Origin: Thermoplasmata archaeon
GTDB lineage: Archaea; Thermoplasmatota; Thermoplasmata; Lutacidiplasmatales; UBA184
DNA length: 64,000 nucleotides
NCBI GenBank assembly: GCA_035502475.1
Contig: DATJUJ010000021.1
Span: 5,098-69,097 of the forward strand
Direction: 5' to 3'
The notes under the pieces are model-generated. The model worked only from the letters and a program-made list of their open reading frames with translations. It was not told the origin of the DNA and did not search any database. A program made the position numbers and the translations under genes. Shown one piece after another: positions 2,208 to 13,093 of this stretch. Positions within the stretch are counted from its first letter, which is position 1; the number at the start of each line of letters is the position of its first letter.

Positions 2208-3437
2208 TCAGATCGGGGGCGCGGAGCTGGGCGCCGGGCGGATCGGGCTCGCGTCGAACGATCCGACGTACCGCGGGAACAGGATCGAACCGACGAGCGT
2301 GGTGACGATCGCCATGAGGAGGATCTCGCCGAGCATCTGCTGCGTGAGCACGCCGGTCGTGTATCCGACCGCGCCCACGATCAGGCCGATCTCGCCCCGC
2401 GGGATCATGCCGACCGCCACGCCGAGGGCCGGTCGTCCCTTGCCGAGCCGGCGTCGGGCGAACGGATAGACACCGACGACCTTTCCGACCGCCGCCAGGG
2501 CCGCCAGGAGGAGGCCCAGCGCGACGAGCGTGAAGTCCAAGAGCAGGCCGACGTCGAAGAGGGCCCCGACAACGATGAAGAACAGCGAGCCGAAGACCAC
2601 GACCAGGATGTCGGTGATCTGGCGGGTCCGGGTCGCCGCCACCGACTCGGCGACCGCGAGGCCCGCAATGAAGGCCCCGATGATCGGCGAGAATCCGAGC
2701 GCCAGGACGATCGCGATCAGGACGAACAGGACGGTGAACGGGATCGTCTCGACCTCCCGGAACACCTTGAGCTTCAGAAGCCGAGGGATCACGACGACCG
2801 ACGCGAGCAGCAGGACGACCCACGCGACGACCGAGGTGACGATGCTGCCCGTCAGCCGGAGCGGGTCCGTGTAACCGCTGAGGATCGCGAGCACGACGGA
2901 GAGGAGCACGAGCGCGACCACATCATCGAGCGCGGAGGCGTTCATCAGGAACTGACCCGCCCGCGTGCGGCCCGTCCCCGTGCTCGACAGCAGGGAGACC
3001 GCGGCGACCGCGCTCGTCGCCGCGGTGGCCACGGCGATGAAGAGCGCCTGGTCGAGGGAGTAGAACCGCGAGAAGACCGCGAGGGCGATCGCGAACGACA
3101 GGAGGTCCCCGGCGATCGCGGCGGCGACCGTTGGCCAGCCGGCCCGGCGGAGGGACGTGAACCCGCCCCCGAGCCCGGCGGAGAACAGGAGCAGCACGAC
3201 CGAGAAGTCGGCGAACAATAGGACGCCCGTGTTGATCGCGAACAGGTGCGTCCCGGTCGTCGCGTCGAAGATCCCCCCGATCGCGTAGCTCCCGATCACC
3301 ATCCCGGCCAGGAGGTCGGCCACGATCTCAGGGAACCCGACTTTGCGGGCGACACTGTGGAGCAGCTGCGCCACGGCGAGGAAGAGGAAGATCTCGAGCA
3401 ACTGGTAGTAGTCGCTCGGAGCCAGGAGGGGGGCCAT
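2208..3437 (-). CDS. cation:proton antiporter, CPA2/Kef-type membrane domain
   Basis: 409 aa, about 12 hydrophobic helices; LDDVVALV, GAFIAGL and MIPRGEIGLIV motifs of the Na+/H+ exchanger family. Confidence 0.85.
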   Translation of the reverse strand: MAPLLAPSDYYQLLEIFLFLAVAQLLHSVARKVGFPEIVADLLAGMVIGSYAIGGIFDATTGTHLFAINTGVLLFADFSVVLLLFSAGLGGGFTSLRRAGWPTVAAAIAGDLLSFAIALAVFSRFYSLDQALFIAVATAATSAVAAVSLLSSTGTGRTRAGQFLMNASALDDVVALVLLSVVLAILSGYTDPLRLTGSIVTSVVAWVVLLLASVVVIPRLLKLKVFREVETIPFTVLFVLIAIVLALGFSPIIGAFIAGLAVAESVAATRTRQITDILVVVFGSLFFIVVGALFDVGLLLDFTLVALGLLLAALAAVGKVVGVYPFARRRLGKGRPALGVAVGMIPRGEIGLIVGAVGYTTGVLTQQMLGEILLMAIVTTLVGSILFPRYVGSFDASPIRPAPSSAPPI

Positions 3438-3514
3438 GGACGCGTCCGGCTCTCGGTAGGCGAGCGCCTATTTCAGGCCCGGTGTTCGAGCGGAGCGAGC
3501 CGACGGAGAACGGC

Positions 3515-11375: not shown

Positions 11376-11407
11376 GTCGCAAATAGCCGGGCCCGTTCCG
11401 CTCGGCG

Positions 11408-12145
11408 ATGACGCAGGCCCCGTGGGACGAGTTCGCCGGCGAGAAGTTCCGCGACGAGCTCACGAAGTACAAGATGGCGAACCACCCGTTCGCGACCCAT
11501 CCGTTCTTCGCCCGGCTCGAGCGGGGCGAGGTGCCGAAGCCGGTCGTCCAGGCGTGGGTGAAGCAGTTCTACCCGTGGCTCGCCTGCGTGCCGATCGCGA
11601 TGGCCGAGCGGTTCTCGAACGTCACGTGGAACCCCGCGCACGACCGGTACCGGCGCATGATCCTGGACCAGCTCGTGGAGGAGGCCGGCGACCCGAAGGG
11701 CAAGGAGCCGGGCCACCCCGAGCTCTGGCTCCGGTTCTGCGAGGGGCTCGGCGTTCCCCGGTCCGAGGTCCAGGGCGCGCCGCTCCTCCCGAGCACGATG
11801 GTCGCGATCGACGATTTCCTGTACACCAACCGCGTCAACCCGTTCTACGTCTCGGCCGCGGGTTCGTCGGAGCCTCCGAACGTCGACCTCTGCGCGCGGC
11901 TCCTCCCCGCCTTCCGCACGCACTACCACGTCCCCGAGGAGAACCTCGAGTACTACCGGCTCCACGTGACCGCCGACGTCGAGCACAGCGAGTGGATCGG
12001 GCAGATCGTGGCGGGGTTCGCGAACTCCCCCGAGGTCCGCAAGCAGATGTGGGAGCAGATGCTCCGAGGATTCTCGATCCACGCGCTCCTCGTCGACGGC
12101 GTGCTGGCGGAGTCGAACGGGGCCGCCGCACCCAAGCATAAATAG
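11408..12145 (+). CDS. heme-oxygenase-like diiron enzyme (CADD/PqqC/TenA superfamily)
   Basis: 245 aa; all six CADD-type metal ligands recognisable: LVEE, HPELW, SSE, HxxxDxxH (LHVTADVEH). Confidence 0.85.
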   Translation: MTQAPWDEFAGEKFRDELTKYKMANHPFATHPFFARLERGEVPKPVVQAWVKQFYPWLACVPIAMAERFSNVTWNPAHDRYRRMILDQLVEEAGDPKGKEPGHPELWLRFCEGLGVPRSEVQGAPLLPSTMVAIDDFLYTNRVNPFYVSAAGSSEPPNVDLCARLLPAFRTHYHVPEENLEYYRLHVTADVEHSEWIGQIVAGFANSPEVRKQMWEQMLRGFSIHALLVDGVLAESNGAAAPKHK

Positions 12146-12146
12146 G
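12138..12146 (+). promoter_or_regulatory. TATA-like box for the aro/trp leader transcript
   Basis: ATAAATAGG overlapping the stop of the upstream gene; AAATAG begins 28 nt before the leader ATG, versus 27 nt for the same hexamer before ATG 11408. Confidence 0.55.
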
Positions 12147-12167
12147 TCCTCGGAGGTCCCCCGGGGG

Positions 12168-12239
12168 ATGGCGGACCGACCGGGCCGCGCCGTGCGCGAC
12201 TTCGCGGGCCCCGGGGCCGCCCACACCTGGCTCTGGTGA
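12168..12239 (+). CDS. putative Trp-sensing leader peptide MADRPGRAVRDFAGPGAAHTWLW
   Basis: ATG 12168, TGG at 12228 and 12234, TGA 12237-12239; lies in the 195-nt gap directly upstream of the aro/trp operon; too short for the ORF track. Confidence 0.65.
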   Translation: MADRPGRAVRDFAGPGAAHTWLW

Positions 12240-12268
12240 ACGGGAGGCGCCGGGAGGGCGCCGTCCCC

Positions 12269-12287
12269 GCGTGCTCCGCACGCTTTT
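12269..12287 (+). terminator. hairpin + U-tract in the aro/trp leader (attenuator-like)
   Basis: GCGTGC-tcc-GCACGC followed by TTTT, 53 nt upstream of the first operon gene. Confidence 0.5.
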
Positions 12288-12340
12288 GGGTCGACTCCTC
12301 TTGGCGCTTCCCTGAGCGATAACTCAGGAAAGAAGAGACC

Positions 12341-13093
12341 ATGTACGGCAAAACGATCCGACTGCGGCGCGTGTTCCCGGACCCGAAGCGACGCCTGTTC
12401 TCGGTGCCCCTCGACCACGCGGTGTCGATGGGCCCGATCGACGGCCTCGAGGCGCTCGCGCCGCTCGCGAACGAGCTCCAGTCGAATGGGGTCGATCTCC
12501 TCATCGTGACGAAGGGGGCGGTGCGCGAGGTCGCGCCGATCCTCCGGCCCTCGACCCTGCTGGGGGTCCATGTCTCCGCCTCGACCTCGCTCGGATCGAC
12601 GTCGAACCGCAAGGTGCTGGTCGGCACCGCGCAGGAGGCCGTGGCCCTCGGCGCCGACCTCCTTTCGGTGCAGGTGAACTTCGGCGTCCCGGAGGAGCCC
12701 GAGATGCTGGTCGACCTCGGGCGGGCGGCCGACGAGTGCCGCGCCCTCGGCCTTCCGCTGCTCTGCATGGCCTACGTCAAGAAGGCCAACGGCGGGACCC
12801 CGGACGAGTTGCGGCACGCCGCCCGGGCCGCCGCCGACACGGGCGCCGACATCGTGAAGACGAGCTACCCCGGCTCGACCGAGGAGTTCGCCCGTCTGTG
12901 CCGGACCACGCCGGTGCCGGTGTTGATCGGGGGCGGCGTTCGGCTCGACGACGAGGCGGCGTTCCTCACGCTCGTGCGCTCGAGCGTCGCGGCCGGCGGG
13001 GCCGGCATCTGCATCGGGCGGAACCTCTTCCAGCGCTCGCCCGTGGGACCCCTCGCGGCGCGGATCGCCTCCCTGCTGCACGGAGCCGGCTGA
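12341..13093 (+). CDS. aroA': 2-amino-3,7-dideoxy-D-threo-hept-6-ulosonate (ADH) synthase, class I aldolase
   Basis: 250 aa; VPLDHAVSMGPIDGL, Schiff-base VKTSY, IGRNLFQ; directly upstream of DHQ synthase II. Confidence 0.88.
   Translation: MYGKTIRLRRVFPDPKRRLFSVPLDHAVSMGPIDGLEALAPLANELQSNGVDLLIVTKGAVREVAPILRPSTLLGVHVSASTSLGSTSNRKVLVGTAQEAVALGADLLSVQVNFGVPEEPEMLVDLGRAADECRALGLPLLCMAYVKKANGGTPDELRHAARAAADTGADIVKTSYPGSTEEFARLCRTTPVPVLIGGGVRLDDEAAFLTLVRSSVAAGGAGICIGRNLFQRSPVGPLAARIASLLHGAG

Follow-up and report, generated by a model that had tools for sequence, protein, structure and literature searches.

What does the 195-nt spacer (12146-12340) between a CADD/PqqC-like gene (11408-12145) and aroA' do, and could it tie the expression of the operon behind it to the supply of tryptophan? 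The spacer lies in a stretch of 64,000 nt from a Thermoplasmata archaeon, which was analysed as a whole and is called the window here (GC content 73%). In this stretch aroA' is gene 1 of an aro-asd-ask-trp operon of 15 genes: DHQ synthase II, an aroD/aroE fusion, archaeal shikimate kinase and EPSP synthase lie 3' of it on the same strand, and chorismate synthase, asd, aspartate kinase, trpB and trpA follow further downstream, also on this strand. The original prediction, made from the letters of the window, had proposed an attenuator-like leader in the spacer, with a small ORF ending in Trp codons, mutually exclusive helices after its stop codon and a terminator hairpin with a U-tract.

The locus, its relatives and its transcript

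The landmarks of the locus are the following.

12138-12145, + strand: promoter TATA box ATAAATAG (family consensus CTAAATAG), its T/A columns showing no or almost no variation across 88 sequences
12168-12239, + strand: leader ORF of 23 codons, MADRPGRAVRDFAGPGAAHTWLW and a stop, with the frame kept, no in-frame stops and only the C-terminus conserved
12228-12239, + strand: putative sensor codons, Trp-x-Trp-stop (TGG CTC TGG TGA), the first TGG present in 86 of 88 sequences and the stop always TGA
12341-13093, + strand: aroA', 2-amino-3,7-dideoxy-D-threo-hept-6-ulosonate synthase (ADH synthase; NCBIfam NF005556, 8.4e-70)

The leader belongs to aroA' also in the relatives. When aroA' orthologues were located without using the motif in 24 genomes of the host genus, 23 had usable upstream sequence and 18 of these carried the leader block upstream of aroA'. 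A pattern derived from the block matched 91 stretches in a species-representative genome collection, nearly all of them labelled as Thermoplasmata MAGs and many from soil, peat or wetland samples. Each genome has one copy, and the distance from the block to the aroA' start is 91-109 nt in all 90 copies where it could be determined. With a covariance model the element was found in 118 of the 186 genomes of the host order, in five genera of one Thermoplasmata family; the counts of frame and structure given below come from an alignment of 88 distinct sequences unless stated otherwise. In four species the gene upstream is a different one, yet the element remains beside aroA', and therefore it is not the terminator of the upstream gene. 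A terminator of the CADD/PqqC-like gene was considered as a candidate and was ruled out by these four species together with the TATA box that the element has of its own.

The leader is missing from some species of the host genus (L005 and L148 (G159), and also L017, L021, L022 and L024). In L005 and L148 the CADD-like gene is followed by a remnant (GGTGATGGGAAGGCGCC...) and then by aroA', with neither TATA box nor ORF, and judged by their sequence these losses look like natural deletions that have joined the operon to the upstream gene.

The ATG of the leader ORF is invariant in the alignment and lies 22-25 nt from the end of the TAAATA box in nearly all of the 88 sequences, and because of this distance the leader mRNA would be effectively leaderless. 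The CADD-like gene at 11408 shares the geometry, as an AAATAG-type box is found 21-23 nt 5' of the ATG both for this gene (11381-11410) and for the leader ORF (12138-12170), and TATA-like hexamers have only about 10 sites in the whole 64 kb. From the shared geometry and the rarity of such hexamers the transcription start is therefore predicted about 24 nt past the TAAATA box, at the AUG of the 23-codon leaderless ORF or 1 nt before it. It seems from the sequence that leaderless mRNAs are the rule for first genes in this host.

A search for RNA runs containing the host genome gave none. Transcripts were available from a relative, a peat MAG (L047), whose locus is present in four metatranscriptomes. 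The contigs start at 3100 and 3110, which is 13-23 nt past the start predicted there (3087), run continuously through the long pairing described below and beyond the aroA' AUG (3254), and end at 3416-3467. Their depth is 14-17 compared to 0-6 over the upstream gene, with a coverage gap between the two in three runs, and one adaptor-flanked fragment covers 3165-3419. The contigs agree with a promoter belonging to the element itself and with read-through transcripts, and they neither show nor exclude short terminated RNAs.

The start of aroA' itself varies. The start codon position holds ACG in L007, L036, L048, L108 and L116, GTG in L004 and L044 and TTG in L082, and the aroA' frame of these species aligns codon for codon (xYGK...) with that of the ATG species, so that judged from the alignment ACG may serve as a start codon in this lineage. 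The Shine-Dalgarno (SD) sequence of aroA' in the window is weak (GGAAAGAAGAG). The UGGUGA of the leader itself resembles an SD, and in L025 (G033), a low-GC genome from a different family of the class, CTCTGGTGAACAC stands directly 5' of the aroA' ATG; this GGUGA is probably merely the SD of that gene.

The leader reading frame and its tryptophan codons

The part of the original prediction that concerned the small ORF is supported: selection keeps its reading frame, and Trp codons stand at its end. The aligned distance from ATG to TGA is a multiple of three in 87 of the 88 sequences: the leader is 72 nt long in 73 of them, and all fourteen length variants (60, 63, 69, 75 and 78 nt) are in frame. 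The sole off-frame leader is that of L048 (73 nt, +1), where the break may be a sequencing error or mark a decayed leader. Not a single stop occurs among 1908 codons in the leader frame, whereas the two alternative frames contain 15 and 2.

The peptide is variable apart from its C-terminus, where the two Trp codons stay while the codon between them varies (L, P, S, F, A, G) inside the genus as well as between the five genera. The host genus has W-[L/P/S/F]-W-stop, g20 has W-S-W, g16 and g18 have W-A-W (in leaders of 23 and 21 codons, respectively) and g15 has W-G-W (23 codons). The second TGG does not depend on how the elements were found, since it is present in 18 of the 18 located through aroA' alone with the motif unused. 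Two Trp codons kept around a variable middle codon, ahead of an operon with trp genes at its end, are in terms of sequence the signature of a sensor ORF, and by its frame, its lack of stops and its W-x-W end the leader appears to offer the short ORF with codons for the regulating amino acid that is expected of an attenuator.

A second small ORF, starting from the GUG that overlaps the stop (UGGUGA) and translated by termination-reinitiation, was also considered. It was ruled out, as neither its length nor the position of its stop is conserved: in 30 sequences the GUG-started frame is soon cut short, in 26 it runs to near the RBS and in 32 it continues past the AUG.

Pairing of the spacer RNA

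The RNA of the leader and of the spacer behind it is built of the following parts, partly as predicted folds.

12170-12174, + strand: 5' strand of helix P0 (the G of AUG and GCGG), paired with 12217-12221
12217-12221, + strand: 3' strand of P0 (CCGCC), 7-11 nt 5' of the first Trp codon, identified by pairing and covariation
12242-12251, + strand: segment 1 (A), GGGAGGCGCC, which mimics an SD and serves both as 5' arm of hairpin 1:2 and as base of the rod; it hardly varies and in every case lies 2 nt past the stop
12252-12256, + strand: loop GGGAG of hairpin 1:2, paired within the rod with the 5' part of strand E
12257-12267, + strand: segment 2 (B), GGCGCCgTCCC, 3' arm of hairpin 1:2, its 3' part paired with strand D in the rod
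12269-12283, + strand: hairpin 3:4, GCGTGC/GCACGC, tip of the rod, variable in sequence, with all 5 pairs changed on both sides and 70% of cells paired
12284-12287, + strand: TTTT, unconserved, U4 at this site in 2 of 88 sequences
12288-12295, + strand: strand D, GGGTCGAC, partner of the 3' part of B in the rod
12296-12312, + strand: strand E, TCCTCTTGGCGCTTCCC, partner of segment 1 and the loop, its 3' end (CUUCCC / CUCCC) being the putative anti-SD
12311-12337, + strand: hairpin CCTGAG/CTCAGG and the purine-rich aroA' RBS region, in predicted folds the other strand with which the 3' end of E can pair

The main structure is the rod. The minimum-energy fold of the whole spacer in the window has a 17-bp pairing of 12242-12258 with 12296-12312 around hairpin 3:4, and in all but a handful of the 88 sequences the minimum-energy fold from stop to AUG is likewise a single long rod, which always begins 2 nt past the leader stop. 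Segment 1 with the loop (GGGAGGCGCCGGGAGG), the SD mimic, is complementary over 16 bp to the family consensus of E, CCTCCCGGCGnCTCCC (given also as CCUCCCGGCGnCUCCC), which is CU-rich. In a structure-blind MAFFT alignment 77.3% of the rod cells are paired compared to 46-53% in slid controls, and in a model-guided alignment of 100 true-strand sequences from the five genera 80.5% compared to 44-58%. The helix between segment 1 and E holds compensatory pairs (GC61/GU19/AU18, GC55/CG14/GU9 and GC47/GU23/CG11), and genus g16 has a compensatory change between B and D (GGCUCCUUC:GAAGGAGCC). Segment 1 had been predicted to choose between two partners, and it does pair with either B or E, beginning 2 nt past the stop; its distal pairing had been placed at 12303-12312 with 10 bp, and the pairing is real but extends over 17 bp. 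An erm-like pairing of B with E was rejected: what allows it in the main genus is only that A and B are close to being repeats of each other, and in the divergent lineages, where A:E is kept, it is poor.

The rod (12242-12312 and its counterparts in the relatives) is nearly self-complementary, and the covariance model scores the reverse strand as well (E about 1e-4 to 1e-2). Mirror matches arising in this way must be removed before covariation is counted; there were 9 of them in the covariance-model alignment, and the pairs were recounted on the 100 true-strand rows.

All helices of the original prediction can be found in the letters at the coordinates given for them. Two checks had been proposed for the helices, comparison with shuffled sequence and covariation. 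The former gave a result no better than chance for the single sequence (z = -1.34 when the full spacer was folded and -1.64 for 1:2 with 3:4), and at 73% GC single-sequence z values of -1.3 to -1.6 are uninformative; the latter came out positive for the distal helix, with its compensatory changes, and negative for hairpin 1:2.

Covariation also bears on a reading at the level of DNA. The palindromic GGCGCC-N5-GGCGCC is a perfect and invariant repeat, and a dimeric transcription factor bound to it could act as a roadblock. This operator would lie about 75 nt downstream of the start site and would occur once per genome, and strand E covaries with the repeat in the RNA sense, G-U pairs included, which makes an operator barely credible.

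Hairpin 1:2 was confirmed where it had been predicted, as 12242-12251 pair with 12257-12267 in 10 bp with one bulged G. It is found in 99 of 100 sequences (-21.3 +/- 2.3 kcal/mol) with an invariant core. When its arms were swapped between lineages no covariation was detected (-20.7 native compared to -19.2 chimeric), and for minority variants the majority partner is often the better match. The rod is more stable than the best fold containing 1:2 by 9-29 kcal/mol (mean 16.5), and as 1:2 in addition lacks covariation, the switch proposed below does not require it. In L147 (G194) the GGGAGG(G)CGCC repeat is present only once (TGAACGGGAGGGCGCCGTCCC), and therefore 1:2 cannot form there; a shorter pairing with the distal strand remains. 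This genome is either a natural test of the need for 1:2 or an assembly collapse.

The block of 36 nt shows no variation, synonymous positions (CTC, TGA) included, as would also be expected of a site for a protein or a ligand. A Trp-binding protein, a metabolite or tRNA-Trp might recognise the invariant block CCUGGCUCUGGUGAACGGGAGGCGCCGGGAGGGCGCC and stabilise 1:2 over the rod, in which case the ORF would play a secondary part or provide a second input. The invariance at the nucleotide level, which includes the loop and the bulge of 1:2 as well as the synonymous sites, argues for such a riboswitch or protein-binding RNA, as does the arrangement in which the covarying P0 and rod flank conserved unpaired nucleotides like those of riboswitch aptamers, and the rod, in which the centre of B is mostly unpaired, does not explain the invariance of B. 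However, the same invariance may also follow from segment 1 having to pair with both B and E, and RNA structure alone does not explain a frame kept across indels or the absence of in-frame stops. The middle codon of W-x-W, moreover, varies while both UGGs stay. Nor does the block match any Rfam family: over 11900-12600 PreQ1 was the sole match (E = 0.86, 17 bits where the gathering score is 39), and its position, 12012-12033, does not fall within the element. We regard such an RNA as unlikely.

The hairpin 3:4 and the TTTT behind it, which had been proposed as a terminator, are present in the window at 12269-12283 and 12284-12287, but U4 directly follows the hairpin in just 2 of the 88 sequences, and 1 of 88 spacers contains a run of U5 or longer at any place. 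Together they are the only terminator-like match in 11 kb, where shuffled sequences give 2.2 +/- 1.6. The antiterminator helix 2:3 found no support, as 52.9% of its cells are paired, which is background (34-62% in slid controls). In classical transcription attenuation, 1:2 with 3:4 and the U-tract would stop transcription when Trp is plentiful and a ribosome stalled on the Trp codons would favour 2:3, and the leader ORF with its Trp codons is real and the GC hairpin of 6 bp with TTTT is the sole site of its kind in 11 kb of the window. As a core mechanism this was not upheld, since the U-tract is species-specific, 2:3 is at background and 3:4 is the tip of a larger, conserved helix. The transcript fragments of the peat relative, moreover, pass from the rod into aroA', although short RNAs ended by termination might be present without showing up in the contigs. 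Intrinsic termination in Archaea relies on tracts of oligo-U, and archaeal RNA polymerase is not known to use hairpin-dependent intrinsic termination. The leader does not offer a hairpin with a U-tract as its alternative structure in the way of trpL, and we hold classical attenuation here to be very unlikely.

Helix P0, which was absent from the original prediction, covaries strongly. Its cells are paired in 93.6% compared to 20-73% in slid controls, and both sides have changed in 61 cells compared to 21 in shuffles, with 0 of 500 shuffles reaching 61. In genus g20 it spans the entire AUG (AUGACCG:CGGUCAU). P0 would shut the leader AUG once the leader is free of ribosomes, which suggests that mainly the first, co-transcriptional ribosome reads the leader.

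A candidate switch on aroA' translation and its relation to known systems

The distal pairing had been proposed as an addition that could bring in translational control. It is conserved and covarying, and its strand E doubles as an anti-SD, but it is the main structure of the element and not an addition. Translational control is our primary reading because the distal helix is the main covarying structure and its partner strand doubles as the anti-SD of aroA'. CUCCC, the 3' end of E, which often has UUCG or the like behind it, shows complementarity to GGGAG of segment 1 as well as to the aroA' RBS. In folds with segment 1 masked, or fixed in 1:2, the RBS becomes the predicted partner of the 3' part of E. 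The predicted paired fraction of positions -16..+3 is 0.38 with the rod, 0.59 with 1:2 forced and 0.56 with segment 1 masked. The duplex of anti-SD and RBS has a mean of -10.9 kcal/mol in 87 sequences, compared to -9.9 for swapped partners (p = 2e-4). According to these models segment 1 (with B or E) and E (with segment 1 or the SD) have mutually exclusive pairings placed so that a ribosome could select between them.

The structure could also be constitutive, acting in mRNA stability, folding, ribosome standby or the translational coupling of the small ORF to aroA', without any sensing of Trp. The rod is overwhelmingly favoured at equilibrium and brings the leader stop near the aroA' RBS, and P0 caps the 5' end, all of which would suit such a role. 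It leaves unexplained, however, why two Trp codons are kept in five genera beside a free peptide and before an operon ending in trp genes, and why the 3' end of E is complementary to both segment 1 and the SD, and we find it quite doubtful.

The distances from the Trp codons to the rod set the geometry. The first UGG lies 14 nt and the stop 2 nt from the base of the rod, so that a ribosome waiting at the first UGG just misses the rod. In the model a ribosome at the second UGG covers the first 4 nt of segment 1, and at the stop it covers the first 7 nt, which are the bases that hold the anti-SD. The modelled probability that the SD is unpaired is 0.50 both for RNA free of ribosomes and for a ribosome whose A site contains the first UGG; it is 0.39 for the second UGG and 0.36 for the stop, a modest change (0.50 to 0.36). 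In the model, 47 sequences have a more accessible RBS when the ribosome stands at the first UGG than when it stands at the stop, and 11 have a less accessible one.

With a little more confidence than doubt, we propose that the element is a Trp-sensing, ribosome-mediated attenuator acting mainly on the translation of aroA', not on termination at a hairpin and U-tract. Only the end of the leader, Trp-x-Trp-UGA, would matter. In the finished RNA segment 1 and the loop would pair with E over 16-17 bp and the rest of the spacer would zip into the rod, so that the anti-SD would be occupied and the aroA' SD open. When Trp-tRNA is scarce, the ribosome would wait with the first UGG in the A site and its front edge short of the rod; the rod would stay and the operon would be translated. 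When Trp is plentiful, the ribosome at the second UGG or at UGA would open the base of the rod, the freed CUCCC would pair with the aroA' SD, and hairpin 1:2 may then trap segment 1. Lowered translation of aroA' could secondarily expose the RNA to factor-dependent termination (aCPSF1/FttA polarity), as published work on archaeal polarity suggests. That the position of the ribosome drives the switch, the direction in which it works and the part that 1:2 plays are points that we infer, and a purely kinetic, co-transcriptional folding path can give the opposite polarity. Against this attenuator speaks P0, which hides the AUG of the leader and would limit its repeated translation, as do the modest size of the modelled change at the SD, the weak SD of aroA' in the window and the invariance of the 36-nt block.

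P0 has a place of its own in a related reading, in which the W-x-W end and the invariant UGA make the ribosome dwell at the stop in a TnaC-like arrest, or sense Trp-tRNA at the UGGs, and thereby wedge the SD mimic off the anti-SD and shut the RBS, while P0 limits the reading to the pioneer ribosome. It would be a genuine archaeal amino-acid attenuator of new design and, if true, would show ribosome-mediated attenuation at work in Archaea with no terminator at all. We consider this rather unlikely.

If the proposed attenuator is true, the element would explain how a 15-gene aro-asd-ask-trp operon is matched to the Trp supply in uncultured Thermoplasmata of soil and peat. The element is a well-defined candidate for testing, with about a hundred natural variants and with strands that can be mutated (the leader AUG, the UGGs, segment 1, E and the SD), and its terminator-free architecture fits archaeal RNA polymerase. 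Leader-peptide attenuation is a textbook bacterial mechanism. In a full-text literature search we found no described example of an archaeal leader-peptide attenuator, such attenuators being described only for bacteria, and a passage of a 2021 paper names promoter recruitment as the only known target of transcription regulation in archaea.

The leader shares with trpL of E. coli a short ORF with (near-)tandem Trp codons before a Trp-pathway operon and mutually exclusive helices behind it. It differs from trpL in having no conserved terminator hairpin and U-tract, in the Trp codons lying 5' of segment 1 instead of inside it and in the leaderless mRNA, and trpL is a more distant likeness than ermCL/cat. 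With TnaC it has in common a short leader with a critical Trp, an invariant UGA and a ribosome at the stop codon, where the dwell is what is proposed here. TnaC induces a catabolic operon by blocking Rho, and its conserved residues (W12, D16, P24) are unlike W-x-W. The likeness to ermCL/cat is in the logic of four segments, in which the position of the ribosome on the leader ORF decides whether the SD is sequestered. The signal in ermCL/cat is an antibiotic-arrested ribosome and not the supply of an amino acid. In erm, segment 1 lies under the stalled ribosome, which leaves segment 2 free to pair with 3, whereas the covariation in the archaeal leader supports a pairing of the type 1:3 (segment 1:E).

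The closest described system is that of the leaderless short ORFs with polycysteine in mycobacteria (Canestrari et al., bioRxiv 10.1101/834739). Those attenuators are bacterial, carry a run of Cys codons and have been experimentally tested, whereas the archaeal leader has W-x-W directly at the stop and is known from sequence and predicted folds. In mycobacteria the stalled ribosome blocks the sequestering duplex directly, whereas the archaeal leader would work with three strands (SD mimic, anti-SD and SD), a long-range rod of 16-17 bp, the extra hairpin 1:2 and P0. Both are found in high-GC organisms, where a biosynthetic operon opens with a leaderless short ORF as its first cistron and an RNA duplex, with no intrinsic terminator, sequesters or would sequester the RBS downstream, and in both the regulatory codons are those of the pathway's final product.
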